DNA from: Alphaproteobacteria bacterium
Lineage (GTDB): Bacteria; Pseudomonadota; Alphaproteobacteria; MPNO01
Reading direction: 5' to 3'
Length of the DNA stretch: 64,000 bases
NCBI GenBank assembly: GCA_964291675.2
Contig: OZ219866.1
Location: 2,176,001-2,240,000, forward strand
Below, piece after piece: positions 11,569 through 28,737 of this stretch. The translations under genes and the position numbers were made by a program. Under the pieces are notes generated by a model. That model was not told where the DNA came from and did not search any database. It saw only the letters and a program-made list of their open reading frames with translations. Numbering within the stretch: position 1 is the first letter of the stretch; the number at the start of each line of letters is the position of its first letter.

Positions 11569-12945
11569 TCAGATGTGGTGATAGTCCTCGACGCCGACCG
11601 TGTAGTCGGTGCCGGCGAGCGGGACCTGCGCGATGGCGGACGCCTCCATGGTCAGCGCGGCGAGGTCCTCCGGCTCCAGCGAGTGGATGTCGGTCTTGCC
11701 GCAGGCGCGGGCCATCATCTGCGCCTCCATGGTGAGCGTGTGCAGGAAGTTGTAGACCCGCTCGGCCGCCTCGTCGGGGTTGAGCCGCTTGCGCAGCTCC
11801 GGGTCCTGCGTGGCGACGCCGACCGGGCAGCGGCCGGTATGGCAGTGATAGCAGGCACCCGCGGGAACCCCCATCTCCGACGGGAAGTCGGCTTCCGGGA
11901 TGTCCTTGTTGCAGTTGAGCGCCATCATCGCCGAATGGCCGATGGCGATCGCGTCCGCGCCGAGCGCCAGCGCCTTGGCGACGTCGCCGCCGTTGCGGAT
12001 GCCCCCGGCATAGACCAGCGAGATCTCGCCCCGCTTGCCGAGGTCGTCGATGGCGCGCCTTGCCTGCCGGATCGCCGCCATGCCCGGCACGCCGGTCTCC
12101 TCGGTGGCCAGATGCGGGCCGGCGCCGGTGCCGCCCTCCATGCCGTCGATGTAGATCGAATCCGGATCGCATTTCACCGCCATGCGGACGTCGTCATAGA
12201 CCCGCGCGGCGCCGAGCTTGAGCTGGACCGGGATCTGCCAGTCGGTCGCCTCGCGGATCTCCAGGATCTTGAGAGCCAGATCGTCGGGCCCCAGCCAGTC
12301 GGGGTGGCGCGCCGGCGAGCGCTGGTCGATACCGGCCGGCAGCGAGCGCATCTCGGCGACCTGGTCGGTCACCTTCTGGCCCATCAGATGGCCGCCCAGC
12401 CCGACCTTGCAGCCCTGGCCGATGAAGAACTCGCAGCCGTCCGCCAGCAGCAAGTGGTGCGGGTTGAAGCCGTAGCGCGACTGGATGCACTGGTAGAACC
12501 ACTTGGACGAGTAGCGCCGTTCGTCGGGGATCATGCCGCCTTCGCCGGAACAGGTCGCGGTGCCGGCCATGGTGGCGCCGCGGGCGAGCGCCGTCTTGGC
12601 CTCGAACGAGAGCGCGCCGAAGCTCATGCCGGTGATGTAGATCGGGATATCGAGCACCACCGGGCGCTTGGCGCGCGGCCCGATCACCGTCCTGGTCTCG
12701 CATTTCTCGCGATAGCCCTCGATCACGAACCGGGTCAGCGTGCCGGGCAGGAAGGTGAGGTCGTCCCAGTGCGGAATCTTCTTGAACAGCGAGAAGCCGC
12801 GCATCCGGTAGCGGCCGAGCTCCGACTTCACGTGGATGTCGTTGATGACCTCCGGGGTGAAGATCTGGCTCCGGCCGAGGATGTATTTTTCCTCGATTTC
12901 CTGCTTGGCGTGGCGGTTGCCGCCCGGGATCGCATCGTCCGGCAT
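11569..12945 (-). CDS. mgsC: N-methylglutamate synthase subunit C (FMN-binding glutamate synthase-like, GlxD)
   Basis: TGMSFGALS, GEGG, GQGCKVGLGGHL, SPARHPD, IDGMEGGTGA, GGIRNGGD, CYHCHTGRCPVG cluster motif. Confidence 0.9.
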   Translation of the reverse strand: MPDDAIPGGNRHAKQEIEEKYILGRSQIFTPEVINDIHVKSELGRYRMRGFSLFKKIPHWDDLTFLPGTLTRFVIEGYREKCETRTVIGPRAKRPVVLDIPIYITGMSFGALSFEAKTALARGATMAGTATCSGEGGMIPDERRYSSKWFYQCIQSRYGFNPHHLLLADGCEFFIGQGCKVGLGGHLMGQKVTDQVAEMRSLPAGIDQRSPARHPDWLGPDDLALKILEIREATDWQIPVQLKLGAARVYDDVRMAVKCDPDSIYIDGMEGGTGAGPHLATEETGVPGMAAIRQARRAIDDLGKRGEISLVYAGGIRNGGDVAKALALGADAIAIGHSAMMALNCNKDIPEADFPSEMGVPAGACYHCHTGRCPVGVATQDPELRKRLNPDEAAERVYNFLHTLTMEAQMMARACGKTDIHSLEPEDLAALTMEASAIAQVPLAGTDYTVGVEDYHHI

Positions 12946-12977
12946 GTCGGTCTGTTCCTGCGCTGCGACGGCGCTGG

Positions 12978-13820
12978 CTAAAGCACCAGCTTCTTCTCCG
13001 TCGGTTCGAGATTGTCGTAGCTCCACAGCTGCTTGCCGGCGACGATCTTGGTGAAGTGGTCGACACCCTGCGGCGGCAGCAATTCGTACATCTTGAGCTT
13101 GCGGGCGAGCCAGGCCCGGTCGAGATCCGTCAGCGCCGCCGGCACCGCATCGACGCCGAGGTCCTGGATCTCGCCGCCGACATAGATCGTGCCGTCATAC
13201 ATCGAGTCGCCGAGATTCTTGCCCGCGTTGCCGCAGACGACGATGCGGCCGCGCTGCATCATGAAGCCGGAGAATGCGCCGGTGTCGCCGCCGACGATGA
13301 TGGTGCCGCCCTTCTGGTCGATGCCGGTGCGCGAGCCCACCGAGCCCTTGCACACCAGGTCGCCGCCGCGCAGCGCGGCGCCGAAGGTGGAGCCGGCATT
13401 CTTCTCGATCACGCAGATTCCGGCCATCATGTTCTCGCCGAACGACCAGCCGACCCGGCCGGAAATCCGCACCACCGGCCCGTCCAGCAGGCCGCAGCCG
13501 AAATACCCCAGGCTGCCTTCGACGATGATGTTCATCCGGTTGAGGATGCCCACGATCAGCGAATGCTTGGCGCCCGGGTTGCGGAGCACGATGGAGCCGT
13601 GGCCCGACTCCATGAGCTCGCGTATCTTCCGGTTGATCTCCGTCGGCTCCAGCGCGGCGCAGTCGATCTCGGCGCGCCGGTTGAAATCGACATCGAGCGC
13701 GAAGTGGTAGGCAAAGCCGCCTTCGTTCTCCAGCCTGAACTTGGTCTTGATGTCCCGGCCCGTCAGGGGCTCGGTATGCATCCCCATCTCGGTGGAGACC
13801 GACCGGTCTACGCCTGCCAT
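12978..13820 (-). CDS. mgsB: N-methylglutamate synthase subunit B (GXGXG domain, GlxC)
   Basis: Repeated GXGXG beta-helix motifs (GSLGYF, GENMMAG, GFMMQRG, LGDSMYDG); overlaps mgsA stop. Confidence 0.88.
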   Translation of the reverse strand: MAGVDRSVSTEMGMHTEPLTGRDIKTKFRLENEGGFAYHFALDVDFNRRAEIDCAALEPTEINRKIRELMESGHGSIVLRNPGAKHSLIVGILNRMNIIVEGSLGYFGCGLLDGPVVRISGRVGWSFGENMMAGICVIEKNAGSTFGAALRGGDLVCKGSVGSRTGIDQKGGTIIVGGDTGAFSGFMMQRGRIVVCGNAGKNLGDSMYDGTIYVGGEIQDLGVDAVPAALTDLDRAWLARKLKMYELLPPQGVDHFTKIVAGKQLWSYDNLEPTEKKLVL

Positions 13821-14743
13821 ACCCGGACCTCCTCGTCATAGGGGTCGGTGGTGTCGATCTCGTGCGGGATGATCGCCCGGATCGCGACCTCCTCGGAAGC
13901 CAGCGCCACGATGTCGTCCGCTTCGTAGAGCACCATCGGCTTGGCGGCCATCGTGTCCTTCGCCATGCCGAGCTCGTTCCGGGTCGTGATCAGATAGGTG
14001 AACACCCCGTCGATCTCCTCGATCGAGGTGCGGAGCGAGTCCTCCAGGGTCATCCCCTTTTCGAGATTGACCGCCGTGTAGACCGCCAGCAGCTCCGAAT
14101 CGCAGTTGCTGACGAAGCGCTGCCCGTCGCGCTCCAACTGCCGGCGCATCAGCCAGTAGTTGGTGACCTGGCCGTTGTGAACGACCGCGATGTCGTTATA
14201 GGGATAGGCCCAGTAGGGATGGGCGGAGCGGATGTCGACATCCGATTCGGTCGCCATCCTGGTATGCCCGATGCCGTGGGTCCCGCGGAAGTCGCCGAGG
14301 TCGTAGTCGCCCGAAACGTCGGCCGCGTCGCCCAGATCCTTGATCAGCTCCAGGGCGTTGCCGATCGACAGGATCTCGGTGCCCTCGATCTCCTCGATCT
14401 GGTCGGCCAAGACCTTCATGTCGCCGTCATGGGCGATCCGGTAGCGGTTCGCGTACTCGGTCGGCCCGTCGCGGTCGAGCACGGCGACGCCGAGCTCCTC
14501 CAGCAGGGTATCGACCGCCGCCTTGCGCTCGGCGATCGCCCGGTGGATCCTGGTCCCGCCGCCCAGATCCTCCTTCTCGGCGACCTTGAAGCGCAGGATG
14601 TACTGGTTCGGCCCGGGCTCGCCGTAGATGGCGAATCCGGTGGAATCCGGGCCGCGATGCTTCAGCGCCTGCAACATGGCGGTCATCTCGCCGCCGATGT
14701 TGCGGGAGCCGTCGCGGTAGATCAGTCCGGCAATGCCGCACAT
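13808..14743 (-). CDS. mgsA: N-methylglutamate synthase subunit A (class II glutamine amidotransferase, GlxB)
   Basis: MCGIAG N-terminal nucleophile, HRGPDS, GHTRMATES, VHNG, DSE. Confidence 0.9.
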   Translation of the reverse strand: MCGIAGLIYRDGSRNIGGEMTAMLQALKHRGPDSTGFAIYGEPGPNQYILRFKVAEKEDLGGGTRIHRAIAERKAAVDTLLEELGVAVLDRDGPTEYANRYRIAHDGDMKVLADQIEEIEGTEILSIGNALELIKDLGDAADVSGDYDLGDFRGTHGIGHTRMATESDVDIRSAHPYWAYPYNDIAVVHNGQVTNYWLMRRQLERDGQRFVSNCDSELLAVYTAVNLEKGMTLEDSLRTSIEEIDGVFTYLITTRNELGMAKDTMAAKPMVLYEADDIVALASEEVAIRAIIPHEIDTTDPYDEEVRVWQA

Positions 14744-14769
14744 GGGCTGTTTCTCCCGTCGAACGCCGG

Positions 14770-16239
14770 TCAGGGCAGGCAGTCGAGATAGGTTTCCATG
14801 TCCCACTCGGTCGTGGTGTGCAGGAAACGCTCCCACTCGTCGCGCTTGTATTCGTCGTACAGGCGGTACATCTCGCCCGGCATCGCCGCCTTGATGACCT
14901 CGTCCCCGGCGAGCGCGTCGAGCGCGTCTCCCAGCGTCATCGGCAGCTTGGTGACCAGCTTGCCCGCCTCCATCGCCTCGTAGATGTTGCGGTCTTCCGG
15001 CGGGCCGGGGTCGATGTCGTTCCTGATGCCGTCATCGGCCGCCTTGAGGATGGCGGCGGCCATCAGATGCGGGTTCACCATCGAGTCCACCGAGCGGTAC
15101 TCGAAGCGTCCCGGCGCGGAGATGCGCAGGCCCGTGGTGCGGTTCTGATAGCCCCAGTCGGCGAATACCGGCGCCCAGAAGCCGGTATCCCACAGCCGGC
15201 GATAGGAGTTCACCGTCGAGGCGCCGATGGCGGTGAGCGCGCCGAGATGCTTCACGATGCCGCCGACCACCTGGAGGCCGGTCTTGCCCGGGAGCTGAAC
15301 GTCGTCGGTATCCGGCAGGAAGGTGTTCTCGCCGCCCTTAAGATACATGAAGTTGCCTTCCATGCCGGGCAGCGGATCGTTGCCGAGCGCATTGAACCGC
15401 TCCTCGCCGCCGCGCCACAGCGAGATGTTGTGATGGCAGCCGGAGGCCGACACGCCCATGAAGGGCTTGGACATGAAGCAGGCGATCAGGTTGTTCTCGC
15501 GGGCGACCTGGGCGCAGATCTGGCGGTAGGTCGTCAGCCGGTCGGCGGTCCTGAGCGCGGTGTCGAAGGTGAAGTTGAGCTCGAGCTGGCCCGGCGCGTC
15601 CTCATGGTCGCCCTGGATCATGTCCAGCCCCATGGCGCGGGAATACTCGATGACCCGCAGGAAGACCGGCCGCAGGCTCTCGAACTGGTCGATGTGATAG
15701 CAGTAGGGGTTGGAGAAGCCGCCATCCGGCTTGCCGTCCTCGCCCCGCTTCAGCCACATCATCTCCGGCTCGGTGCCGTGGCGCAGATGCAGGCCGTCGT
15801 GATCCTCCTGGAACTGGGCGTGGATGCGACGCAGATTGCCGCGGCAGTCCGCGGTGAGGAACGCGCCGGGCTCGTCGCGCTCTTCCCGGTTGCGGAACAG
15901 GGTGCACCAGACCCGCGCGACCCGCTTGTCCCAGGGGAGCTGGCAGAAGGTATCGGGCTCCGGGATGCCGACCAGCTCCTTCTCGTGCGGCCCGTAGCCG
16001 AGATACTCGCCGTGCCGGTTGAGGAACAGGTTCACGGTCGCGCCGTAGACCAGTTGGAAGCCGCGTTCGGCGACGGTTTCCCAATGATCCGACGGGATGC
16101 CCTTGCCGCAGATCCGGCCGGTGATCGACACGAACTGGAGATAGAGATACTCGATGCCGAGCTCGTCGATCCTTGCCCGCACCTGCCTTACCAGATCGTC
16201 GCGTCCGTCCTGTTGCACAAAGGCTTCGATATCCATCAT
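14770..16239 (-). CDS. gmaS: Glutamine synthetase-like protein, gamma-glutamylmethylamide synthetase by context
   Basis: GTEPE, DHEDAPGQLE, FMSKPF..SASGCHHNIS, TVNSYRRL, NRT, FEYRSVD; first gene of the mgsABC operon. Confidence 0.82.
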   Translation of the reverse strand: MMDIEAFVQQDGRDDLVRQVRARIDELGIEYLYLQFVSITGRICGKGIPSDHWETVAERGFQLVYGATVNLFLNRHGEYLGYGPHEKELVGIPEPDTFCQLPWDKRVARVWCTLFRNREERDEPGAFLTADCRGNLRRIHAQFQEDHDGLHLRHGTEPEMMWLKRGEDGKPDGGFSNPYCYHIDQFESLRPVFLRVIEYSRAMGLDMIQGDHEDAPGQLELNFTFDTALRTADRLTTYRQICAQVARENNLIACFMSKPFMGVSASGCHHNISLWRGGEERFNALGNDPLPGMEGNFMYLKGGENTFLPDTDDVQLPGKTGLQVVGGIVKHLGALTAIGASTVNSYRRLWDTGFWAPVFADWGYQNRTTGLRISAPGRFEYRSVDSMVNPHLMAAAILKAADDGIRNDIDPGPPEDRNIYEAMEAGKLVTKLPMTLGDALDALAGDEVIKAAMPGEMYRLYDEYKRDEWERFLHTTTEWDMETYLDCLP

Positions 16240-16457
16240 GTCGCCGTCCCCTCCTGGCGCGCTTTGCCGACGCTCGTCGCGTCACCCCGGCGGTTGACGC
16301 AACCAATACGAACCATTACATTGGCTCCGATCGAACGATCGCGGGTGACGCGACCGACAGAGAAATATTTAGATATCCTCGGTAGGTCCCGTTTGACAAT
16401 CGGCGTGGCCGGATGACCCGCATTGCTTGAACGGTCGCCAGTCTGCATCGTCGATTG

Positions 16458-16494
16458 ACCAATTGCAAACCAATTTTGCCAATACCAACCAATT
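16458..16494. promoter_or_regulatory. Helically phased (A/G)CCAAT repeats, candidate GntR/FadR operators
   Basis: ACCAATT 16458, ACCAATT 16469, GCCAATA 16478, ACCAATT 16488; further ACCAAT at 16302. Confidence 0.5.
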
Positions 16495-16537
16495 AGTGCA
16501 GGGGCGGCGTTGGCGGTGAATCGGGGAGGGTCGGGTT

Positions 16538-17278
16538 GTGGATGACGCGGGCGCGTCCGCGCAGCAGGTTCGACCCGTCGCCGGCCTGCGTCCCGGCGAG
16601 GGCGGCCGCCATGTCGGGCACATCACCGCGCAGCTGCGCGAGGCCATCCGCAGCGGCTTCTACGTGACCGGCGACCAGCTTCCGGCCGAGCGCGAGCTGG
16701 CCGAGCGGTTCGCCACCGCGCGCAGCACCATCCGCAAGGTACTGCTCAATCTGGAGACCGACGGCCTGATCGAGCGGCGGGTCGGCAGCGGCACGTTTGT
16801 GACCTGCGACGACATGGCGATCGATGCCGCGCGCGACATCGTCGGCCGGGTCAGCCCGCTGGAGCTGATCGAAGCCCGTCTGGCGGTCGAGCCGCACATG
16901 ATCCGGCTCGCGGTGCTCAACGCGACGGCCAACGAAATCGGGATGCTGGGATCCATCCTCGACGACCTCGAGCAGTGCCGGAACGACAAGGAGACCTTTT
17001 CCCGGCACGACAGCATGTTCCACGAATGGCTTGCCAGGAGCTCCAAGAACCCGCTGCTGCTCCACCTCTACCAGCAGATCAACGCGGTGCGCGGCCACGG
17101 CCAGTGGGACGCCATGAAGAACAAGATCCTGTCGTCCGAAGTGATCGACGAATACAACCGCCAGCACCGCGCGCTGTACGAAGCGATCAGGCGCCGCGAC
17201 ATCGTCGCCGCCGTGAAGCACATCAACGACCATCTGGAAAAGGCGCGCAAGGACCTGACGGGCGCCGGCGAGATCTGA
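16538..17278 (+). CDS. GntR/FadR-family regulator with FCD domain (TmoR-like by context)
   Basis: GDQLPAERELAERF wHTH, RRVGSGTFV, LIEARLAVE, DSMFH..LA..SKNPLL. Confidence 0.9.
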   Translation: MDDAGASAQQVRPVAGLRPGEGGRHVGHITAQLREAIRSGFYVTGDQLPAERELAERFATARSTIRKVLLNLETDGLIERRVGSGTFVTCDDMAIDAARDIVGRVSPLELIEARLAVEPHMIRLAVLNATANEIGMLGSILDDLEQCRNDKETFSRHDSMFHEWLARSSKNPLLLHLYQQINAVRGHGQWDAMKNKILSSEVIDEYNRQHRALYEAIRRRDIVAAVKHINDHLEKARKDLTGAGEI

Positions 17279-17285
17279 TCGTCCG

Positions 17286-18308
17286 TCAGGCGTCGCAATC
17301 GACCCACACGTCGTCCGACCGCGGCACCGCCTGGCACAGCAGGATGTAGCCCCTCTCCTTGTCGCGCTTCGACAGGATGGTGCTCTTGCGCATCGCGACC
17401 TCGCCGGATTTCCTGATCACCATGCAGGAGCCGCAATGGGCGTCCTTGCAGGAATGCACCGGATCGAGGCCCTGGGCCAGCATGCAATCGAGCAGGGTTT
17501 CTCCGGCTGAATAGGCCACCTCGCGGTCTTCGCCGTCGAGGGTGGCGCGGAAGCCCGCGACGCCGCCGGCTCCGGCGACCGGCTCCGAGTCTCCGGCGCC
17601 GGCATCGTCGTCGGACATGGTGAAACGCTCGATGAACACGTCGCGGTCGTCGACGCCGAGCTCCGCCAGCACGTCCACCGTCAGGTCCATGAACGGTGCC
17701 GGCCCGCAGACGAAGAAGTGGCAATCCGTCGAATCGCCCGCGAACTGCGCGATGCGCTCGGCGTCGGCCAGCCCGGCCTCCGCGTCGAGATGGTGGCGGC
17801 AGCCGAGCCGGCCGGGAAACCGCGCGCCCAGCTCGTCGAGCTCGCGCCGGAAGATGATCTGGTCGTACGCCGTGTTGGCGTAGAACAGTCGCGGCGACAG
17901 CGCGGTCTCGTGGAGCGCCTGCTTGATCAGCGAAATCACCGGGGTGATCCCGCTGCCGCCGGCGAACAGGACCATGGGCCGGTCGGGCCGGCGCATGACG
18001 AAGCGCCCGCTGGGGGGCGCGGCCTCGATGACGTCGCCCGGCCGCGGCACGTCGTTGAACCAGCTGGAGCCGGGCCCGCCCCGGACCCGCTTGACCGTGA
18101 CCTGCATCTCGTCGTCGCAGGCCGGCGCGCTCGACAGCGAGTAGCAGCGCTCGACGGGGCCGCCTGTCGCGGGAATCCGGAAGGTCAGGAACTGCCCGGG
18201 CCGGTAGCCGAACAGCGGCGCGTGTTCGGCTTCCGGCCTGAGCCGGAACGACCGTGCCTGCGGCGTCTCGTCGACGATCCCGCTTATCGTGAGCGGATAG
18301 AACTTCAC
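17286..18308 (-). CDS. Ferredoxin-NAD(P)+ reductase with C-terminal [2Fe-2S] domain
   Basis: PGQFLT, RCYSLSS, AGGSGITP, VCGPAPFM, CKDAHCGSC...LLCQA. Confidence 0.9.
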   Translation of the reverse strand: MKFYPLTISGIVDETPQARSFRLRPEAEHAPLFGYRPGQFLTFRIPATGGPVERCYSLSSAPACDDEMQVTVKRVRGGPGSSWFNDVPRPGDVIEAAPPSGRFVMRRPDRPMVLFAGGSGITPVISLIKQALHETALSPRLFYANTAYDQIIFRRELDELGARFPGRLGCRHHLDAEAGLADAERIAQFAGDSTDCHFFVCGPAPFMDLTVDVLAELGVDDRDVFIERFTMSDDDAGAGDSEPVAGAGGVAGFRATLDGEDREVAYSAGETLLDCMLAQGLDPVHSCKDAHCGSCMVIRKSGEVAMRKSTILSKRDKERGYILLCQAVPRSDDVWVDCDA

Positions 18309-18375
18309 CGGTACATCAATGCAACAGGCATTCCACCTCCAAGGGGCGAAGCCACAAACCGCACGCGCCTGCCGG

Positions 18376-19002
18376 CTAGAACGCGGCGGCAGCTTCCCTG
18401 GCTTCCTCGATCACCTTGGCCCGCGTCGCCGCCTGTTCCTCCGGCGATGTCAGCATCGGCTCGACGACCAGCGAACGGACATCCTCGAAGCCGATGAAGC
18501 TGAACAGGAAGTCCAGGTACCGCTTCTGGAAGTCGACCTCGAAGAAATCGGAGGGCGGCATATAGGCGGCGCCGCGCGCAACGATCACCATCGCCGGCTT
18601 GCCCTTGACCAGGCCTTCGTACCCGCCTTCCACCACGGCGAAGGCGAGGTCCGGCTGGACGATGATGTCGATCAGATGCTTCAGCTTGTAGGGAACGTTG
18701 AAGTTCCACATCGGCGTGCTGAGCACGATCTTGTCGGCCGAATTGAACCGGTTGAAGGTTTGCACCACGACCCGCCAGGCATCGGCTTCCCGTTGGTCGA
18801 GCTCGCCGAGATCCAGCAGCCTGTATTTCGCGTCGATCATGGCAATGTTGAGCTCGGGCAGCTCGGTATCCCAGAGATCCATCTTGTCGATCTCGTGATC
18901 GGGATTGGCGGCGCTGTAGGCCTCCAGGAACGCTTCCGCCACGGCGATCGAATGCGACCGCTCCTTGCGGGGCGAGACTTCAATGTAGAGAACCTTGGTC
19001 AT
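18376..19002 (-). CDS. FMN-dependent NADH-azoreductase (AzoR/AcpD family)
   Basis: SPR..RSHS, PMWNFNVPYKLK, ARGAAY, FIGFED. Confidence 0.88.
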   Translation of the reverse strand: MTKVLYIEVSPRKERSHSIAVAEAFLEAYSAANPDHEIDKMDLWDTELPELNIAMIDAKYRLLDLGELDQREADAWRVVVQTFNRFNSADKIVLSTPMWNFNVPYKLKHLIDIIVQPDLAFAVVEGGYEGLVKGKPAMVIVARGAAYMPPSDFFEVDFQKRYLDFLFSFIGFEDVRSLVVEPMLTSPEEQAATRAKVIEEAREAAAAF

Positions 19003-19050
19003 CTTCAGCCTCCTCTGTTCGTTTTATCGCCCGTCCGGCTCCGACGATCG

Positions 19051-19833
19051 TCAATCGGCCAGAGCGATGGCGTCCCCCTTGCGGACGGGGCCTTCCTTGA
19101 TGACCGCGGCATAGACGCCGGCGAACCCCTCATGCGCCCGGGTCACGTGCCGCAGCAATGCGGGGTCCGTCTCGGCGGTTTCCGGATGGATCGTAATGAA
19201 CTTGCAGCGCGGGTCGCGCTCCACCACCATGACCTCCACCGTGTCGCCGACCTTCACCGTCCTGCCGACGAGCTCGTCTTCGTAGAAGCCGCCCTGCTCG
19301 TTCCAGTCGACATAGAAATTGGCCCGGAACTGCAGCTTGTGGATGTCGCTGCCGGTCTCCTGGCTGAGCTGGTCCACCGTCTGCAGCGAGAACAGCGTCA
19401 CCGGCCGGCAGTCGACGATGTTGCGCTGGGTATGGTGCAGCGCAAGCTCGCCCTCGGACTTGTCCTTGAGGCCTTCCAGGAAGGCCGGGTCCTCGATATC
19501 CACCACCGTGCCGTCGGGGATCTCGACCTCGACCGCGAAGGCGCCCGGGTCCGTCGGGAACGGCGCATGGATGTTGGCGGGATGCCCCATGGCCTCCACC
19601 ATGTTGTCGGGCTTCAGGGTCCCGTCGCGCTGCTTGAAGCGGGCCTGGTAGAGCACATAGTCTTCCTGCTCGCGGGCCGTGTGCCAGGGAAAGGCCTTGT
19701 CGGCTGCGGTCGAAGACACCGCATAGACCCGGTCGCCCATCAAGCCGGTGAAGGCGACGAATATTTCATCGACCTCTTCTCCGCGCATGCTCTTGACGGG
19801 ATAGCGCCAAATGCTCTCCAGCTTTCCCAACAT
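19051..19833 (-). CDS. MOSC-domain molybdoprotein (MOSC_N + MOSC; mARC/YcbX-like)
   Basis: IWRYPVKSMRGE, GDRVYA, QFRANFYV, DPRCKFITIHPET with the putative Moco-ligating Cys, G.V..GD.I C-terminus; start ATG 19833. Confidence 0.85.
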   Translation of the reverse strand: MLGKLESIWRYPVKSMRGEEVDEIFVAFTGLMGDRVYAVSSTAADKAFPWHTAREQEDYVLYQARFKQRDGTLKPDNMVEAMGHPANIHAPFPTDPGAFAVEVEIPDGTVVDIEDPAFLEGLKDKSEGELALHHTQRNIVDCRPVTLFSLQTVDQLSQETGSDIHKLQFRANFYVDWNEQGGFYEDELVGRTVKVGDTVEVMVVERDPRCKFITIHPETAETDPALLRHVTRAHEGFAGVYAAVIKEGPVRKGDAIALAD

Positions 19834-20207
19834 CGATCCCTCCCTCGCGATTATAGGTTGAGTGTCCGCCGCCATCGGTGAAGTCGGTCGCTCTCGCGCG
19901 GCGGCACAAGCGGCGACCCACGGTCCGCAGCCGGTATCGTCATTGCCGAATTCGACCGTGTTCGGCTTGCCGGCAAGCAGGCACACATGGGGTCACCCGC
20001 CTTGGCAGGCATCGTTTCTTCCCACCAGACGCCGACCCCGGGCGATCACCAGCCGAAAATCAGGTCGGCTCTTGCGATTCAACGGGGTCGCCGCGCATCG
20101 GCGACCCGCTCGACTTCGAAGTTGACGCCTTTCGAGGCTATCACCCGGTTTCCGGGGTGTCCAGCCGATGCCCCTGCCCATCGGCGCGCCTGGTTGCCGG
20201 GACACCC

Positions 20208-21053
20208 TCACGCCGCCGCGGTATCCAGCGGCGTCATCGGCGAAATCGGCCGGTCATGGTCGAGCGCCGGTATCCTTCTACGCGCCTCGGCGACACGCCC
20301 GGGGTCGATCTCCGCCAGCACGATGCCCTCGCCCTCGCCGCCGTCGGCGAGCACCGCGCCCCAGGGGTCCACGATCAGCGAATGGGCGAAGCAGGCGCCG
20401 CCCCCTTCGACCTCGCCGTATTGGCATGGCGAGATCATGTAGCAGCCGTGCTCGATCGCCCGGGCGCGGTTCAGCACGTGCCAGTGCGCCTTGCCGGTCT
20501 CCCTGGTGAACGCGGCCGGCGCCGCCAGCATGATCGCCCCGTCCCGGGCGAGCTGGCGGTACAGCGGCGCAAAGCGCAGGTCGTAGCAGATCGACAGGCC
20601 CAGCCCGCCCCACGGCGTCTCCGCGACGACCGAGCGGTCGCCGGGCGCTATCGTCGCGGATTCGGTGACGGGACCGGATTCGAGCTCCACGTCGAACAGG
20701 TGGATCTTGTCGTAGCGGGCAACGATCCCGCCATCGCCGTCGATAACATAGGCCCGGTTGGAGATGCGCCCGTCCGGGTTCACCACGCCGAGCGAGCCGA
20801 GCAGGAACCAGACGTTCCGGTCCCGGGCCGCCCGTGCGAAGGCCGGCAGCACCGGATGCTCGGCTTCGGCAAACGCGGTCGGGAGAAACAGCCCGTTCTC
20901 GGTGCGCAGCCCGGAGAAATACTCGGGCGTGCAGATCAGCCGGGCGCCCGCCTCCGCCGCCTCGCGCGCGAGCCGGAGCGACACGTCGATGTTGAAATCG
21001 ACATCCGGCGTCGCGTTGTTCTGGATACAGGCCGCGACGAATTTCTTGGACAT
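20208..21053 (-). CDS. Carbon-nitrogen hydrolase (nitrilase superfamily, Nit1-like amidase)
   Basis: Catalytic triad motifs TPEY, YDKIHLFDV, SICYDLRF; RARAIE, HSLIVDPWG; start ATG 21053. Confidence 0.9.
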   Translation of the reverse strand: MSKKFVAACIQNNATPDVDFNIDVSLRLAREAAEAGARLICTPEYFSGLRTENGLFLPTAFAEAEHPVLPAFARAARDRNVWFLLGSLGVVNPDGRISNRAYVIDGDGGIVARYDKIHLFDVELESGPVTESATIAPGDRSVVAETPWGGLGLSICYDLRFAPLYRQLARDGAIMLAAPAAFTRETGKAHWHVLNRARAIEHGCYMISPCQYGEVEGGGACFAHSLIVDPWGAVLADGGEGEGIVLAEIDPGRVAEARRRIPALDHDRPISPMTPLDTAAA

Positions 21054-21088
21054 CCGGTGCTCCCGCCGGCGTCGCGCCGGGTCTTGGC

Positions 21089-23485
21089 TCAGGCCTTCAC
21101 CCGCGACTTGGTCGGGTCGTAGAAGGGGAAGGGCACGACCTTCGCCGGTATGCGCTTCTGGTGGCCGTCCAGCTTGCCCACCTCGACCGCCGTCCCCTCC
21201 GCCGATGCCGTCACGTCCATCCGGCAGAGCGCGATATTCCGGCGCAGGACCGGCGAGCGCATGCCGCTGGTGATGACCCCGACCTGGGCGCGGCCGACAT
21301 GGACGCAATCGCCGTGCGCCGCCGCCTCCTGCCCCTCCAGCTCGAGCCCGACCAGCCTGCGCTGCGGCGTGTCCTTGCGCCGGATCAGCGCCTCCCGGCC
21401 GACGAAATCGTCCTCTTTCGACTTGAGCGGCACGGTAAAGCCGATGCCGGCCTCGAACGGATCGGTCTGGTCGTCGAACTCGTAGCCGGCGAAGATCAGC
21501 CCGGCCTCGATGCGGACCATGTCGAGCGCCTCCAGGCCGAAGGGCGACAGGCCCTCGGACTCGCCGGCCCGCCAGATCGCGTCCCACACCCCGGCGGCGT
21601 GGCGCGGATGGCACCACACTTCGAAGCCCAGCTCGCCGGTATAGCCGGTGCGGGAGACGACGATCGGGATGCCGTCGTGATCGCCGATCCGGCCGATGGC
21701 GAAGCGGAACCAGCCGAGCTCCTCGATGGACGGCTGGACCGGCGGCGTCCACACCACCTGCTTGAGGATGTCCCGGCTGGCGGGCCCCTGCACGGCGACG
21801 TTGTGGAGCTGATCGGTCGACGAGCGGACCCAGACGTTCAGCCCGAGCTTCGCGGCTTGCTCGCGCATCCACTCGCCGCCGTAATCGCAGCCGCCCACCC
21901 AGCGGAAATTGTCGTCGCCCAGCCGGAAGGCGGTGCCGTCGTCGATCATGCCGCCGGTCTCGTAGCACATCGCGGAATAGACCACCTGCCCGGTCGCCAG
22001 GCGCCGGACGTTGCGGGTCAGCACCCATTGCATCAGCCGTTCGGCGTCCGGCCCCAACACCTCGAACTTGCGCAGCGGCGACAGGTCCATGATCGCGGCG
22101 CGCTCGCGGCAGGCCCAATATTCGTCCAGCGCCCCCCGATTGGTGAAATCGCTGGCCAGCCAGTAGCCGTTGTATTCGGTGAAGTTTCTCGTGTGTTCGG
22201 CAAACCGGCCGTGGAACCCGGTCTCCCGGGTCAGCTTGGGATCGGCGTCGGGAGTCATGCGAAAGGCCACCGCTTTGGAAAACACGTTCTCGCGGGGATA
22301 GACCCGCACGTGGATATCGGTCGGGTTCCAGCCATTGGCGGCGTCGATGTCGTCGGGGCAGGCCGAGGAGACGCAGACGAGGTCGGTCATCGCCTGCAGC
22401 AGCACGTAATCCCCCGGCCGCGACCAGGGATCGTCGAACACCGCCCGGTCGGCATCGAAACCGGTGTTGAAGAAGAAGTTGAGCGCCATCCAGCCGCGGC
22501 GCGGTGCGATCCCGAAGGGCGCGAGCGCGCCGTTGAAGTTGTCGGTGCAGTTGACGTGGCCGGGATAGCCCATGTCGTCGTAGTACTTGGCCGTGCAGGC
22601 GTAGAGGAAGCTGTCGTGCCGGCCGCAGGTGTCGCGGATGACCTCGACCATCGGCTGCAGGTTGACGTCGTAGCATTTCGACAGCAGGCCGGGCGCCGGG
22701 TAGGCGCTGCCCATCAGCGTGCGGGTCGCCGTCGCGTCCAGGCAGTACTCCTGCCCCGCGTCGAGGCCGGCGACGGTGAACGCCTGGAAGTCCGAGCATT
22801 CGCGGCCCTGCACGTCGATGATCTGGATGAACTCGCCCGCCTTCACCTCGTAGGCTTCGGCGGTGCGGGCGGCGATCCGCCGGTCGATCCTGGGGTCGGC
22901 CAGGGGTTCGGGCACCGGGTGCTCGTCCGGCGCCACCGGGTTGGCGCGCGTAACGAAGATCTCGACCGGCGTCGGCGGGTCCTGCCGGTCGACGCGCATC
23001 GGGCCGCCCGGCGCGGCGACGAAGCAGACCAGCGGGCGTTCGGCGCAAAGGCTCGCCTCGTCGCCCGGGCGCGACTCGCCGCCCAGCACGTCGATCGAGC
23101 GCGCCGCGGCGATGTCGAGGCCGCGCCGCTGCAGGCTTCCCGCCAGCGACCGGGACCGTTCGCCGCCGGCGCCCAGGATCGACTTGAGGCCCGCGGCGGA
23201 CCCGCTCACGGCGCCACCCAGCGCTTCGGTATCCGGCGAACCGTCGGGCGCGAAGGCGGCGATCTCGGCTTGCTGCCGGCCTTCGCGGTCGCGCAGCGTG
23301 AGCCCGTCGCCCGGCTCCAGCGAGAAGACGGCCGCCGCGCCGCCTTCGGCAACGTAGCGCTCCACCCCGAGCCCCAGCGTCGGCACGCCGGGGACCAGCA
23401 CGGCGCCGGCCCGGGACGGTTGCAGCGACAGCGGCGGTTGCGAATTGCGGCCGTCAGGCATGGCAATGCTCCCCGGCTTGTCCAA
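21089..23485 (-). CDS. tdm: Trimethylamine N-oxide demethylase (DUF1989 + GcvT-like THF domain)
   Basis: CSDF, DTCGRHDS..ACT.KYY..GYPGHVNCTDNF, SSACPDDID.ANGWNPTDIHVR, then DLSPLRKFEV, RTGYTGELG, RIEAG; alternative start ATG 23461. Confidence 0.88.
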   Translation of the reverse strand: MDKPGSIAMPDGRNSQPPLSLQPSRAGAVLVPGVPTLGLGVERYVAEGGAAAVFSLEPGDGLTLRDREGRQQAEIAAFAPDGSPDTEALGGAVSGSAAGLKSILGAGGERSRSLAGSLQRRGLDIAAARSIDVLGGESRPGDEASLCAERPLVCFVAAPGGPMRVDRQDPPTPVEIFVTRANPVAPDEHPVPEPLADPRIDRRIAARTAEAYEVKAGEFIQIIDVQGRECSDFQAFTVAGLDAGQEYCLDATATRTLMGSAYPAPGLLSKCYDVNLQPMVEVIRDTCGRHDSFLYACTAKYYDDMGYPGHVNCTDNFNGALAPFGIAPRRGWMALNFFFNTGFDADRAVFDDPWSRPGDYVLLQAMTDLVCVSSACPDDIDAANGWNPTDIHVRVYPRENVFSKAVAFRMTPDADPKLTRETGFHGRFAEHTRNFTEYNGYWLASDFTNRGALDEYWACRERAAIMDLSPLRKFEVLGPDAERLMQWVLTRNVRRLATGQVVYSAMCYETGGMIDDGTAFRLGDDNFRWVGGCDYGGEWMREQAAKLGLNVWVRSSTDQLHNVAVQGPASRDILKQVVWTPPVQPSIEELGWFRFAIGRIGDHDGIPIVVSRTGYTGELGFEVWCHPRHAAGVWDAIWRAGESEGLSPFGLEALDMVRIEAGLIFAGYEFDDQTDPFEAGIGFTVPLKSKEDDFVGREALIRRKDTPQRRLVGLELEGQEAAAHGDCVHVGRAQVGVITSGMRSPVLRRNIALCRMDVTASAEGTAVEVGKLDGHQKRIPAKVVPFPFYDPTKSRVKA

Positions 23486-23514
23486 ACTACCCTACCGGCG
23501 CGACGTTGCCGGCG

Positions 23515-24211
<697 letters not shown>

Positions 24212-24222
<11 letters not shown>

Positions 24223-25009
24223 GGCCCGCCCCGCTGTCGGCGGCCGCCCCGAGATAGGCCTCGATCACCGCCGGATCGTTGCGCACCTCCTCCGGCGCGC
24301 CTTCGACCAGAAGAGCGCCGAAATTCATCACCGTGATGGTGTCGCACAAATTCATGACCGCCTGCATGTCGTGCTCGACCAGCATGACGGTGACGCCGCC
24401 GTCGCGGATGCGCCGGACCAGCGACATCATGCGCCGGGTCTCCTGCGGGTTCATGCCGGTGAACGGCTCGTCCAGCAGCAGCACCTTCGGCTCCGCCGCC
24501 AGGGCGACCGCCATGCCGAGCATGCGCTGGTGCCCGTGCGACAGGTTGGATGCAAGCTCTCCGGCCAGGTCTTCGAGGCCGAAGAAGGCGAGCGTCTCCC
24601 GCGCCCTGGCGTCGGCGGCGCGTTCCGACGGCCGGTCGGTGCCGAGCAGGCGGCTCGCGAACCCGGCTCGGGCGGCGAGGTGGCGGCCGACCCGGACATT
24701 GTCGAGAACCGAGAGCTCCTGGAACAGGGTCGAGCCCTGGAAGGTGCGCACCAGGCCCATCGCGGCCAGCGCGCTGGTCTTGCGGCCGGAAACGTTGCGG
24801 CCGCGATAGAGGACCTGGCCCGCGTTCGGCGCGTAGAAGCCGCTGATCACGTTGAACGTCGTCGTCTTGCCGGCGCCGTTCGGCCCGATCAGCCCGTGGA
24901 TCGCCCCCGCGCGGACGGCGAAGCTGAAATTGTCGACCGCCACGAGGCCGCCGAACCGGCGGATCAGCCCGCGCGCCTCGAGGATCGGCTGCTCGCCCGG
25001 ACCGCTCAT
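24212..25009 (-). CDS. Branched-chain amino acid-type ABC transporter ATPase (LivG-like)
   Basis: From ATG 25009; [36 protein letters not shown]. Confidence 0.92.
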
Positions 25010-26037
25010 GCCGCCCCGCTCCCGGCCGCCGCCGGGTCCCGCTCGCGGCGCCGCAGCCGCGCGCGCAGCCTGGGTCCCAGGCTCTCCAGCCCGTCCGGCA
25101 GATAGAGCACCGACAGGATCAGGATGGCGCCGTAGATCAGCGGCCGGACCGTGTCCATGCCGAGCCCGCGCAGCACGATCTCGTTGATCACGGTCAGCAC
25201 CACGACGCCGAGGATCGGGCCGTGCAGGGTCGCGGTGCCGCCGACGATCGCCCAGACCAGGACATAGACCATCTGGTCGACGCCGAACCTTGTGGGGTTC
25301 ACCGCCCCGACATAGTGGCCGTAGAGGCCGCCGGCGATCCCGGCGAAGAAGGACGCGATGACGAAGGCAAGCGTCCGGTAGCGGAAGGTGTCGACGCCGA
25401 CGGACTCGGCGAGCCTGTCCTGCCAGTGGATGGCGTGGAAGGTGAGCCCGATGCGCGACCGCTCGATCCGGTAAAGGACGTAGAGCGATGCCGAGACCAC
25501 GATCAGCGCCAGGAAGTAGTAGTTGACCGGCTCGTAGAAATCGATCTCCAGGAAGCCGATATCGATGTCCGGAAAGGCGTCGATCCGCTTCAGCCCCTTG
25601 GGGCCGCCGAACGGGTCGGTGAAGCGCTTCCAGATCAGGCGGATGATCTCGCCGGCCGCAAACGAGCCGATCAGGAAGTAAAACCCCTTCATGCGGAACA
25701 GCGGGAAGCTCAGGATCGCCGCGCCGGCCGCGGCGACCATGCCGCCCGCCAGCATGGAGACCGGCACCGGCACGCCGAGCCGCTTGGTCAGCAACGCGCT
25801 GGCATAGGCGCCGACCCCCATCATGACGACATGGCCGAGCGACCATTCGCCGGTGAGCGTGAGCAGGCGGTAGCTGCACACCAGCAGGACGTTGATCACC
25901 AGCAGGACGGCGATCTCCTGCTGCGAATAGCTCAGCAGATAGGGCAGCGCGGCGAGCGCCGCAAACAGCAGGAGCAGCCGAAGCCTTACCGCCATGCGCC
26001 ACACCGCGTTGCCCGCCGCTTCCGCCCGCTCAGGCAC
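25006..26037 (-). CDS. LivM-like ABC permease
   Basis: [39 protein letters not shown]; start GTG 26037 or ATG 25995. Confidence 0.88.
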
Positions 26038-26893
26038 GTTCCTTCGCCCCGAACAGGCCGGTCGGCCGCACCACCAGCACGGCAAGCATCAGCGCGAGGC
26101 CGACGATGTTGGCGATCACCCCGTCGAAGAAGGTGGTCACGAAGGTGTGCACGAAGGCGTAGAGCACGGCTGCGATCACCGCGCCTTCGAGGCTGCCGAT
26201 GCCGCCGACGATGATGATTATGAAGGCGGTGACGATGACCGAATGGCCGATATAGGGGGTGGGGCTGACCAGCGGCGCGGTGAGCGCGCCGGCGACGCCG
26301 GCCAGCGCGGCGCCGATGAACATGGCGATGCGCGCGGTCTGGGTCATCGAGATGCCCTGGAGCGCGGCGGCCTCCGAATCCTGGGCGCAGGCGCGCAGCG
26401 CCCAGCCGAATCTGGTGCGCTTGAGGAAGGCCCACAGCGCGACCAGCAGCAGAACGGCGGCGACGATGACGAGCAGCCGCTGATGGGTCAGGACCGCGCC
26501 GAAGATATCGAGCTTCTCCTGGGTCGGCGGCGGAACGTGGCCCATGCGCCGGCCGAAGCCCAGCACGACCAGGGTCTGCAGGATCAGCAGGAAGCCGATC
26601 GATGCGATCAGCCCGCTCAGCGGGTTGTCCCGCAGCGGCCGGAACATCGCGCGTTCCATGAACAGGCCGACGAGACCGACGAACACCAGACCCGCGGCGA
26701 CCGCGGGCAGAAAGGGGAAGCTCTCCTGGGCGTAGAGATACACCACGCAATAGGCGCCCAGCATGTAGAGCTCGCCATGGGCGAAGTTGATCACCCCCAT
26801 GACGCCGAAGATCATCACCAGCCCGACCGCGATCAGCGACATGTAGCTGGCGGCATACATGGCGTTGATGGCGGTCTGCCACAGCAGATCCAT
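26030..26893 (-). CDS. LivH-like ABC permease
   Basis: GVMGVINFAHGELYMLG, GWALRACAQD, IVGGIGSLEG, VRPTGLFG. Confidence 0.92.
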   Translation of the reverse strand: MDLLWQTAINAMYAASYMSLIAVGLVMIFGVMGVINFAHGELYMLGAYCVVYLYAQESFPFLPAVAAGLVFVGLVGLFMERAMFRPLRDNPLSGLIASIGFLLILQTLVVLGFGRRMGHVPPPTQEKLDIFGAVLTHQRLLVIVAAVLLLVALWAFLKRTRFGWALRACAQDSEAAALQGISMTQTARIAMFIGAALAGVAGALTAPLVSPTPYIGHSVIVTAFIIIIVGGIGSLEGAVIAAVLYAFVHTFVTTFFDGVIANIVGLALMLAVLVVRPTGLFGAKERA

Positions 26894-26928
26894 CGGGCAG
26901 CCTCAAACGCTGTGGCGGAGAAACGGAA

Positions 26929-26955
26929 CCGGGGCCGGGCAGAGCCCGGCCCCGG
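26929..26955. terminator. Hairpin downstream of the binding-protein gene (attenuator or mRNA stabiliser)
   Basis: CCGGGGCCGGGC-AGA-GCCCGGCCCCGG perfect 12-bp stem. Confidence 0.55.
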
Positions 26956-27003
26956 CAGCCGATCCAGGCGCGGCGGCGATGCCGCGCGGATTGCGTCGCC
27001 GGA

Positions 27004-28311
27004 TCAGCGCTGGTTCCACATCTGGCCCAGCGCGGTCATGTGCTTGATCATCAGCTTGCTGTGCTTCGCCCACCAGGCGGGGATGGACTTGAAGGCCTTG
27101 ATCCGCGCCTTGCCGTCCTCGATGACCACGACCGGCCAGTTGCCGACCAGGGCGTTGTCGATGCCGAACAGCTCCTTGCCCCACCACTTGGCGTCGCCGA
27201 AGGCGTGCTTGCCGGTGCCGTCGGCCTTCATCGCTTTCAGGACCGGGCCGGGCTCGGCGCTGCCCGCCTTGGTGGCGGCATCGGCCCACAGATCCATGAT
27301 CGAGGCGTATTCCCAGGAGACGGCGCTCCATTCCGCGGCGCCGAAGCGCTTGGCGTATTCGGCGTAGAACTCGTTCGGCTTGACGAAATTCACGTCCTTG
27401 CTGTTCAGCGCCGGGTCGTCGAAATCCGGGAACTGGAAGATGAAGCCTTCCATGAACTCCTTGGACGTCTTCTCGATGATCTTCTGGTAGAAGTCGGCTG
27501 TGCAGGAGATGATCTGCCCCTTGTAGCCCTGCTGGAACGCCTGTTCGCAAAGCGGGTGGACATAGTCGGCGTAGCAGGTGTCCAGGCACAGGATGTCCGG
27601 CTTCTTGGCCAGCAGCTTGGTCATCACCGGCGCGAAATCGGTGGTCGCCGGATCGAAGAACTCCGGCTTGTCGACCATCTCGATCCCGGCCGCCTCGAAG
27701 GCTGCCAGGTAGGTCGCCACCGAAGGCTTGCCGAGCGCGTCGTCCTGCGCGCAGATCGCCGCGGTCTTCAGGTCCTTCTTGTTCTCCGCCAGCCATTCGA
27801 CCCCGGTCACGTTGTAGATCGGATGCACCTCGCACGGCGCGAGCAGGGTCTTGGTCTCCGGCGACAGGTCGCTCGGCAGCAGCGTCGAGAACAGCATGCC
27901 CTCGCGTTCGGCGATCTTCTGCACGCCCGGCCAGGTGTCGCCCCCCAGCATCATGACGAACTTGACGCCGTCCTCCTTGATCAGCTTGGTGGCGCCGGTA
28001 CGCGCCTTGGCGGGGTCGTATTCGTTGTCGTAGCCGACGAATTCGATCTTGTGCGACTTGTCGCCGATCTTGACACCGCCCTTGGCGTTGACCCAGTCGG
28101 CCCAGATCAGGCAGCCATCGAGGCCGGGCTTGCCCCACGCCGCCACCGGCCCGGTGAGCGGCGCGAGGAATCCGATCTTGATGGTCGCGTCCGCGGCGAA
28201 GGACACGCGGGGAAAGCCCGCCCCCATCGCCGCCAGCGCCGCTCCGGAAGCCGCCGAAGTGCCGAGGAATTTCCGCCTGCTGATCTTTCCGTCGAGTGAC
28301 TTGCGAGACAT
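27004..28311 (-). CDS. LivJ/K-type ABC substrate-binding protein with Tat signal peptide
   Basis: From ATG 28311: MSRKSLDGKISRRKFL (twin-arginine), IKIGFLAPLTG, NAKGG, TTDFAPV. Confidence 0.9.
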   Translation of the reverse strand: MSRKSLDGKISRRKFLGTSAASGAALAAMGAGFPRVSFAADATIKIGFLAPLTGPVAAWGKPGLDGCLIWADWVNAKGGVKIGDKSHKIEFVGYDNEYDPAKARTGATKLIKEDGVKFVMMLGGDTWPGVQKIAEREGMLFSTLLPSDLSPETKTLLAPCEVHPIYNVTGVEWLAENKKDLKTAAICAQDDALGKPSVATYLAAFEAAGIEMVDKPEFFDPATTDFAPVMTKLLAKKPDILCLDTCYADYVHPLCEQAFQQGYKGQIISCTADFYQKIIEKTSKEFMEGFIFQFPDFDDPALNSKDVNFVKPNEFYAEYAKRFGAAEWSAVSWEYASIMDLWADAATKAGSAEPGPVLKAMKADGTGKHAFGDAKWWGKELFGIDNALVGNWPVVVIEDGKARIKAFKSIPAWWAKHSKLMIKHMTALGQMWNQR

Positions 28312-28659: not shown

Positions 28660-28737
28660 TTCCGCCGCCGAAGGGGATTGGACGATGCCGGCGACTCGGA
28701 GCGATGCGGACCGCCGGCCAGGACGGGGAGCGAGAAC

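Follow-up and report, generated by a model that had tools for sequence, protein, structure and literature searches.

The subject of this analysis is a three-gene cassette with its own upstream leader, located in a 64-kb stretch of alphaproteobacterial DNA (the window; G+C 64–72%). The window belongs to a 4.8-Mb genome in two contigs (G000), and its closest public relatives are sponge-associated alphaproteobacterial metagenome-assembled genomes (MAGs). Window genes were called by third-position G+C, together with Pfam and NCBIfam profiles. The three genes (the trio) encode a MOSC protein, an AzoR-like flavoprotein and an FNR-like reductase with a [2Fe-2S] domain, and they lie inside an island of methylated-amine genes (tmm-tdm-gmaS-mgs). 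Trio and leader probably constitute an autonomous, relocatable cassette for a split molybdenum (Mo) N-reductase of the YcbX/mARC type, with the removal of side-products of amine oxidation as its likeliest role. An earlier note on this DNA had described three co-oriented genes with short gaps downstream of tdm and an amidase gene, and it was correct in coordinates, domains and gaps (48 nt between the MOSC and AzoR-like genes, 67 nt between the latter and the reductase gene, and 374 nt up to the CN_hydrolase gene).

The MOSC protein, whose gene starts behind the ribosome-binding site GAGGGAGGG, matches both domains of its family, MOSC (PF03473, E 1.2e-16, 61 bits against a cut-off of 22.7) and MOSC_N (PF03476, E 1e-6, 29 bits against a cut-off of 25). 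Pfam detects no Fer2 domain in its 260 residues; the Fer2 domain is located on the neighbouring FNR protein. An alignment of 17 homologues, some as little as 51% identical, shows no variation in the motif R209-C210-K211 or in D141-C142-R143-P144. Together, Pfam and this alignment bear out the earlier description of a MOSC_N+MOSC protein that keeps the R-C motif and has no fused ferredoxin. Searched against solved structures, the family profile matches human mARC1 only (E 5e-8), with C210 aligned to the cysteine of the mARC1 RC motif. Foldseek likewise ranks mARC1 (6fw2, E 4e-5) first for the modelled structure, followed by YiiM and YuaD (to E 6e-3), with template-modelling scores of just 0.3–0.4. 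The sequence thus predicts a catalytic subunit of the YcbX/mARC type that binds the molybdenum cofactor (Moco).

Some related proteins deviate from this layout. The genome holds a second MOSC_N+MOSC paralogue of 284 aa (G000:C1:770073-770927; L036:1051-1905), which is 26% identical and adjoins a DctM TRAP-transporter gene. In the database protein P0018 (251 aa), MOSC_N and Fer2 domains occur together, with 91% identity to the window protein across 69% of MOSC; a chimera or a rearranged trio could explain it. In P0122, MOSC is fused to a β-carbonic anhydrase, and the Pro_CA family occurs twice among 138 immediate neighbours of more distant MOSC genes. A relative with MOSC fused to FNR or Fer2 was not found, which is a weak negative: only two longer MOSC proteins turned up, the fusion with carbonic anhydrase and one with a hydantoinase.

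The reductase has the domains and motifs of a class-I oxygenase reductase. RxYS (R54-x-Y56-S57), GGSGITP (G118-S-G-I-T-P) and the cysteines C287, C292, C295 and C325 are invariant in an alignment of 14 sequences, and the spacing of the cluster cysteines, read off the sequence, is Cx4Cx2Cx29C. All named NCBIfam reductases score below their cut-offs: PaaE 197 against 421, GbcB 128 against 500, BenC 121 against 430, and NF007964 ("NADH oxidoreductase", which we take to be Hcr) 119 against 383. The association of the reductase with MOSC recurs. A reciprocal scan from the reductase alignment finds MOSC adjacent in the 9 top-ranked of 80 loci and in 11 overall, leaving 69 without it. The pair of MOSC and FNR-[2Fe-2S] genes without AzoR is present at ten further loci in Alpha- and Gammaproteobacteria, with the order MOSC>FNR, FNR>MOSC (L073/L135) or divergent (L128). 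A cultured Rhodospirillaceae isolate (L130) likewise has just the pair. At two loci, in a Kiloniellales MAG (L129) and a Rhodospirillales MAG (L132, the same as L045), the pair follows a weak CN_hydrolase match and a polysaccharide-deacetylase/PuuE-like gene, a second and separate association of an amidase with MOSC.

The partnership was also modelled, using the MOSC protein (alignment A1) and the Fer2 domain (residues 248–340, alignment A5). The complex model reaches a median interface score (ipSAE) of 0.68, compared with 0.03 for the best of three controls. The model's mark is attained by 58 of 80 solved complexes and 2 of 110 mismatched pairs. The runs have at least 95% of contacts in common, and the predicted local distance difference test (pLDDT) is at least 89 for the partners. 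In the model, the Fer2 cluster loop H291-C292-G293-S294 sits on R209-C210-K211 of MOSC, which is the geometry expected for electron transfer from Fe-S to Mo. On the strength of sequence and model, the FNR protein is predicted to be the electron donor to MOSC.

The third protein matches Flavodoxin_2 over its full length (E 1e-43), and its best match in the PDB is Bacillus AzoR (3w78, E 7e-28). Its scores against the NCBIfam azoreductases stay below the cut-offs (114 against 188 and 86 against 432). A scan of 78 new loci separates a narrow group, since the 11 relatives with at least 79% identity all lie inside trios, while the next-best reach 54% at most and never stand beside MOSC. The protein is predicted to be an FMN-dependent NAD(P)H oxidoreductase that was added to the pair in one clade. 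Since AzoR is absent from the ten pair loci, it is not taken as an obligatory electron carrier; its probable function is the two-electron reduction of a related substrate, of the oxidised-nitrogen or quinoid kind, under shared regulation. We know of no AzoR that is a partner of a MOSC enzyme.

The trio travels as a block. Close MOSC relatives were fetched at 34 loci, 11 of which have the complete trio and one a trio cut by the contig end; the window included, it occurs in 13 genomes and at least five contexts. Its conservation as a block in related loci therefore argues against a chance juxtaposition. The tdm gene stands beside it only in the three nearest fetched loci (L001–L003). At four others (L004, L006, L009, L030), the trio has genes for a PhyH dioxygenase and an FAD oxidase before it and one for a UbiD decarboxylase after it, at L007 it is near a Rieske oxygenase, and L005/L008, L010 and L011 offer other settings. 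All named NCBIfam families tried for the neighbouring enzymes in these other loci scored below cut-off.

In a quick maximum-likelihood tree, 122 MOSC proteins fall into two clades (approximate likelihood-ratio test 100), one of which contains every pair and every trio. A single origin of the trio suffices in this tree (one change, support 92), with the pair loci at a more basal position. The sister group of the trio has lost the reductase and adjoins a gene for a fused hydantoinase/lactamase-like protein. The MOSC proteins of this sister clade (L012–L027, L032, L117; for example L012:10828-14472) are 80–84% identical to that of the window and have neither AzoR nor FNR next to them; 48 nt after MOSC follows a gene for a 1214-aa fused hydantoinase A/B protein, caprolactamase-like and below cut-off. 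The database protein P0121 is a fusion of MOSC with the N-terminal part of a hydantoinase.

RNA-library contigs from two sponge metatranscriptomes, 91–98% alike, span the MOSC and AzoR genes and some of the FNR gene, and the AzoR–MOSC junction is crossed by two of them. Such contigs are no proof of a single transcript, and DNA carry-over is possible. No contig of these two metatranscriptomes covers positions 19880–20311, a result that has no bearing on co-transcription with tdm and the CN_hydrolase gene.

About 370 nt upstream of MOSC can be aligned in all contexts of the trio despite the differing upstream genes. Neither the MOSC genes of the sister MOSC-hydantoinase clade nor that of L028 have this leader in front of them. 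One alignment of the leader (A7) was made without L005, which does not align at the assumed offset, and without L003, which is too divergent. RNAalifold proposes ten helices with 86.5% of cells paired (35–48% with slid partners) and two-sided changes in 24 pairs (8–14 when slid), figures that are inflated because they were scored on the very alignment from which the structure came. The observed covariation values were matched in 0 of 500 shuffles, except that for further pair types 1 of 500 matched. Identity in the leader (50–60%) is below that of third codon positions (72–78%), so conservation alone is no proof of function. A consensus promoter scan finds nothing in the 374-nt gap and a single promoter-like site at 16294 (+), and three terminator-like sites are no more than shuffled sequences give.

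The leader matches no known family: an Rfam cmscan of 16000–24000 at E≤1 returns only a chance-level iscRS match inside the MOSC coding sequence. A covariance model of the leader core (R1) finds a single strong copy in each of G000, G401, G404 and G409 and a weak one in G410 among 41 relatives, where all other matches stay at or below 26 bits and nothing outside the trio genomes is convincing; blastn detects no second copy in the genome. The idea of a widespread RNA class was rejected, as the R1 copies are confined to trio genomes. The leader presumably comprises a promoter of the cassette's own and a possibly structured 5' untranslated region, and its core is a candidate for a new cis-regulatory RNA.

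The position of the cassette in the island can be compared with 20 tdm regions fetched from other Tdm-bearing Alphaproteobacteria, none of which contains MOSC. Three of them (L209, L211, L212) share the gene order of the window, tmm ... tdm-CN_hydrolase / gntR-gmaS-mgsABC, with gntR reduced to a 32-residue remnant in L209. The site is empty in L211, L212, L315 and L316, where the stop codons of the CN_hydrolase and gntR genes are about 30–50 nt apart and the flanking genes are 80–87% (CN_hydrolase) and 80–86% (GntR) identical to those of the window. Empty sites reach into the genus of the window itself (G401 and G411). From these empty sites it follows that the window holds a 2.93-kb insertion composed of the leader and three genes; a target-site duplication was not seen at its borders. 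Comparative sequence evidence thus places the cassette as an insertion between the CN_hydrolase and gntR genes of a pre-existing tmm-tdm-gmaS-mgs island, in the sublineage of the window. Three genomes (G155, G369, G391) have the identical island and no MOSC gene at all. The earlier idea of a module that belongs to the tmm/tdm locus does not agree with an insertion into an elsewhere empty site, with at least four other contexts and with an upstream region of its own. Nor is the trio physically linked to tdm at large, since 0 of 32 other Tdm-bearing Alphaproteobacteria have MOSC near tdm.

At the genome level the association is close. The cassette is found almost only in genomes owning the tmm-tdm island. 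Among 12 genomes of the window's genus, five have the trio and six have Tdm, and all five trio genomes are Tdm-positive, with tdm adjacent in four and 514 kb away in G401. The 41 relatives of G000 comprise five genomes with MOSC, all among the six with Tdm, and none of the 35 Tdm-negative genomes has MOSC. A second sample, 41 relatives of G439 from another family, has MOSC in seven genomes and Tdm in nine; all seven are Tdm-positive, 0 of 32 Tdm-negative genomes have MOSC, and MOSC is never near tdm. When both family-level samples are pooled, 12 of 12 MOSC-positive genomes have Tdm, and MOSC occurs in 0 of 67 without it; the co-occurrence that the earlier note had proposed to check therefore exists as a nesting of the cassette within Tdm-positive genomes. 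Tdm was also found in 15 of 17 other genomes of tree clade I, all of which have MOSC. In a class-wide sample of 401 genomes, which includes the 32 other Tdm genomes, MOSC-domain genes of Tdm genomes are at least 430 kb from tdm where both lie on the same contig.

A few more distant MOSC genes stand among amine genes, a minority picked out post hoc. In a cyanobacterial MAG (L040, 2286–4609), a gmaS gene 73% identical to that of the window ends 14 nt before MOSC, and a PhyH dioxygenase gene is nearby. At L052, MOSC lies among genes for an amine-dehydrogenase-like protein of the old yellow enzyme (OYE)/Fe-S type, electron-transfer flavoprotein, GcvT, PhyH and gmaS. L121 combines MOSC with two OYE/Fe-S amine-dehydrogenase-like genes and a dimethylglycine-dehydrogenase-like gene, and at L028 MOSC is beside a GcvT-like gene.

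We infer the electron path from family knowledge and from the motifs: electrons would pass from NAD(P)H to the FAD of the FNR-like domain, on to the C-terminal [2Fe-2S] cluster, and finally to Mo-molybdopterin on Cys210 of MOSC. The Mo centre would carry out a two-electron reduction of an N–O bond to yield an amine and water, with an N-hydroxylated compound as a likelier substrate than an N-oxide. Genes for MoeA (two copies), MoaC and MoaE, a prerequisite for Moco, are found elsewhere in the genome. Intact motifs, the recurrent MOSC–FNR pairing, the complex model and these Moco genes all support the self-contained mARC/YcbX-like N-reductive module that the earlier note had proposed. In evolutionary terms, the pair of MOSC and FNR-[2Fe-2S] would be the old core, which AzoR joined once in sponge-associated Alphaproteobacteria before the cassette relocated, in the window's sublineage, into the pre-existing island. 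Its physiological role would be to clear N-oxygenated side-products of the oxidation of methylated amines, a role judged likeliest because the cassette is almost confined to genomes with the island; respiration or recycling of trimethylamine N-oxide is less likely.

The chemistry and the components of such a system are already known from YcbX/CysJ and from mARC with cytochrome b5 and its reductase. E. coli YcbX has a fused [2Fe-2S] domain and depends on the flavoprotein CysJ, and in Vibrionales the Mo, FAD/NAD and Fer2 modules of YcbX are united in a single chain (PMC10637980, in part). As far as this partial source goes, the cassette resembles YcbX/CysJ in its MOSC_N+MOSC unit with a Mo-ligand cysteine, in the path from flavin through [2Fe-2S] to Mo, and in its combined inventory of domains (MOSC_N, MOSC, Fer2, FNR-like FAD/NAD and a flavodoxin-fold FMN protein). 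Unlike in E. coli YcbX, however, the [2Fe-2S] cluster is fused to the FNR module instead of MOSC, and the reductase is encoded alongside rather than shared with sulfite reductase; in place of the CysJ flavodoxin domain there is an FMN protein of the AzoR/Flavodoxin_2 type. The three redox modules of the Vibrionales chain are the same ones that the cassette splits over two genes, which argues for a natural MOSC–FNR–Fer2 partnership, insofar as the same partial source describes that chain.

The eukaryotic chain of mARC, cytochrome b5 and b5 reductase likewise has three components for N-reduction and includes the nearest solved structure by profile and, on a low-confidence model, by fold; its carrier is the haem protein b5 and it is membrane-anchored, whereas the cassette uses [2Fe-2S], and the profile E-value is just 5e-8. 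AzoR enzymes share the full-length Flavodoxin_2 fold, and those of Bacillus are the best PDB matches, but the cassette flavoprotein falls below all NCBIfam azoreductase cut-offs and forms a separate branch (79–100% identity within trios, then 54% at most). The canonical tmm-tdm-(dmm)-gmaS-mgs island is present in the window with the cassette inside it, while the cassette itself is not a conserved part of the island. What is new is the split at the gene level, with MOSC alone and an adjacent FNR-Fer2 reductase, together with the once-acquired AzoR, the behaviour as a cassette with its own leader, and the nesting in Tdm-positive genomes. Literature searches that paired MOSC/YcbX with tmm, ferredoxin reductase or azoreductase did not find this arrangement described, the results for azoreductase being judged unrelated by title and opening of the abstract.

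Several explanations compete for the substrate. One that sharpens the amine-related role is metabolite repair, in which N,N-dimethylhydroxylamine, N-methylhydroxylamine, hydroxylamine or γ-glutamylhydroxamate would be reduced to the amine or amide. These compounds would originate when Tmm encounters dimethylamine (DMA) released by Tdm, or when GmaS encounters hydroxylamine. Tmm of M. silvestris does oxidise DMA as well (PMC3915288, in part), and GmaS accepts hydroxylamine with a Km of 211 μM (PMC7948447, Table 1, in part). Tdm produces DMA in the same cell, and as the genome has no HODM/Dmm homologue, DMA may accumulate. The pooled counts (12 of 12 against 0 of 67) favour this explanation, as do the MOSC genes beside gmaS, in amine-demethylase clusters and near a GcvT-like gene. 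Against it, the amine theme is absent among the 138 immediate neighbours, gmaS is within 10 kb of none of the eight MOSC loci in the unbiased class sample, and other contexts of the trio (PhyH with FAD oxidase and UbiD; Rieske oxygenase) suggest aromatic or other chemistry. MOSC is also absent from the three genomes with the identical island, and the co-occurrence counts ignore kinship. The removal of N-hydroxylated by-products, as suggested in the earlier note, thus keeps its genome-level support and loses the argument from membership in the tmm/tdm locus; as a precise assignment, metabolite repair is a tentative one, possible but well short of even chances.

General detoxification of N-oxygenated xenobiotics or metabolites of the sponge host (nitro, oxime, hydroxamate or N-hydroxy-base compounds) is about as likely as repair of N-hydroxylated amines. 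The first two-electron steps would fall to AzoR and the last to MOSC, and the link to Tdm would reflect shared ecology only. YcbX, YiiM and mARC have functions of this kind (PMC10637980, in part), the contexts of the mobile-like cassette with its own leader are variable and include aromatic-type enzymes, the genome is rich in UbiD paralogues, and no context is fixed across the wider MOSC family. This explanation leaves the lack of the cassette in all 67 Tdm-negative relatives unaccounted for, however, and it points to no specific substrate.

The recycling of the Tmm product by cytoplasmic reduction of trimethylamine N-oxide (TMAO) to trimethylamine (TMA), which the earlier note had put forward, fares far worse. 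It can appeal to the cassette lying 374 nt downstream of the tdm-CN_hydrolase genes in four genomes, to the co-occurrence with Tdm at the genome level, and to the reduction of TMAO by mARC1 in vitro. TMAO is, however, turned over very poorly by mARC1, at a very high Km, and N-OH compounds are the substrates that mARC and YcbX favour (PMC10637980, in part). Recycling would also run Tmm, whose gene is 9 kb off, in a futile cycle. The cassette came in as an insertion and brought its own leader, and of the 12 Tdm-positive trio genomes that were compared, 8 have it far away from tdm. Such a role is very improbable.

Equally improbable is that the reductase serves an oxygenase (Rieske, Dmm-type or PaaE-like) and that the three genes are mere neighbours. 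PaaE is the best NCBIfam match (197 bits), the architecture is that of a class-I oxygenase reductase, and a Rieske oxygenase is near the trio at L007. Every named model nevertheless stays far below its cut-off, and no oxygenase adjoins the reductase gene, as the earlier note had observed: the nearest Rieske oxygenase of the window is at 49559–50845. The closest FNR relatives adjoin MOSC, the block is kept through at least five contexts, and the complex model passes. PF11927 (HODM_asu-like) has no match in G000, whereas the same search was positive in 9 of 32 other Tdm genomes, used as a control. A replacement of the missing DMA monooxygenase by the trio was rejected, as PF11927 is also absent from the other 23 of those 32 genomes and the trio is missing from relatives that have the same island.

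A number of observations weigh against a cassette-borne N-reductase with an amine-related role, some on the protein side and some on the genomic side. The model of MOSC has a mean pLDDT of 63.8 and falls below 50 in the N-terminal half, and it was kept out of residue-level claims because of this low-confidence domain. The complex model was built from our own shallow alignments, its calibration counts are approximate, and its pass may reflect a resemblance to fused YcbX-type proteins. The substrate, cofactor loading and nucleotide preference are presumptive, as is any role of AzoR in the cassette. Clustering and a Pfam census reveal no conserved context in the wider MOSC family, most members of which have no reductase neighbour; the 138 immediate neighbours of 85 more distant members represent 168 Pfam families, the commonest of which, MFS_1, accounts for just 5. 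Three relatives run the island without MOSC, and the pathway therefore works without the cassette. Conversely, Tdm is lacking in the trio genome G440 and in G450, a genome of the MOSC-hydantoinase group. In the class-wide sample, 3 of 8 MOSC-positive genomes have Tdm, compared with 29 of 392 others (Fisher p 0.02), and this count, like those of all samples, ignores kinship. Since neither Tdm nor the cassette extends beyond parts of two genus-level groups, their association may go back to a small number of independent events.

Table 1. Positions of the cassette, its parts and the surrounding island in the window
Feature	Position	Strand	Remarks
mgsABC	11569-14836	-	
gmaS	14770-16239	-	
GntR/FCD regulator	16538-17278	+	convergent to cassette
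Inserted cassette	17279-20207	.	between gntR stop (17278) and CN-hydrolase stop (20208)
FAD_binding_6+NAD_binding_1+Fer2 reductase	17286-18308	-	340 aa, Pfam
AzoR-like Flavodoxin_2	18376-19002	-	208 aa, Pfam
MOSC_N+MOSC	19051-19833	-	260 aa, Pfam
Gap / cassette leader	19834-20207	-	374 nt, non-coding
Leader conserved core	19938-20112	-	175 nt
CN_hydrolase	20208-21053	-	directly downstream of tdm
tdm	21089-23485	-	NCBIfam TMAO-demethylase equivalog, 1225 bits, cut-off 1100
Liv-type ABC transporter	23515-28245	-	
tmm	28678-30081	+	part of methylated-amine island

The remaining features of the island and the genome (Table 1) include the CN_hydrolase gene, which goes with tdm and not with the cassette. 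It also lies directly 3' of tdm in seven fetched loci from several families (L209, L211, L212, L315–L318) and seems to belong to the tdm locus as a conserved member not described so far. Its product resembles the Nit1/deaminated-glutathione amidase, at 170 bits against a cut-off of 500. Downstream of mgsC, Pfam recognises no sarcosine-oxidase-like mgdABCD between 5235 and 11555, a region of ambiguous gene calls: a 752-aa open reading frame (ORF) on the minus strand, with a DAO domain confined to its middle, overlaps a plus-strand ORF for an AraC/DJ-1 regulator, and two more ORFs have no Pfam match. Further along the window, an IS110-family transposase gene (35924–37309) is followed by a gene resembling that of the large subunit of N,N-dimethylformamidase (37754–40039; DMFA2_C, E 1e-95), the product of which could be a further source of DMA in the genome. 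At least nine GcvT-like genes are present in G000, and a single UbiD query gives 35 tblastn matches with more than 60% query coverage.

As a compact, self-sufficient enzyme with a dedicated reductase, the cassette is open to direct reconstitution. It provides an evolutionary series from pair to trio to relocation, and its near-exclusive occurrence in sponge-associated bacteria that own the TMAO-demethylase island offers an ecological handle. If the link to Tdm is functional, it would add a metabolite-repair step to the marine cycling of methylated amines; if it is not, the analysis corrects an attractive but misleading guilt-by-association reading of the locus. A more far-reaching proposal, which we regard as rather unlikely as a whole, is that the cassette is a damage-control accessory of the aerobic TMA/TMAO pathway and that its leader RNA senses an N-oxygenated amine. 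Tmm would then N-hydroxylate the dimethylamine or methylamine released by Tdm, the more so without Dmm, and MOSC, FNR-[2Fe-2S] and AzoR would turn the toxic hydroxylamines, or γ-glutamylhydroxamate made by GmaS, back into usable amines. To our knowledge, the bacterial MOSC reductases YcbX and YiiM are known only through artificial base-analogue resistance. Should the damage-control proposal be true, it would supply the first physiological substrate class and pathway for a bacterial MOSC reductase, along with a new cis-regulatory RNA.

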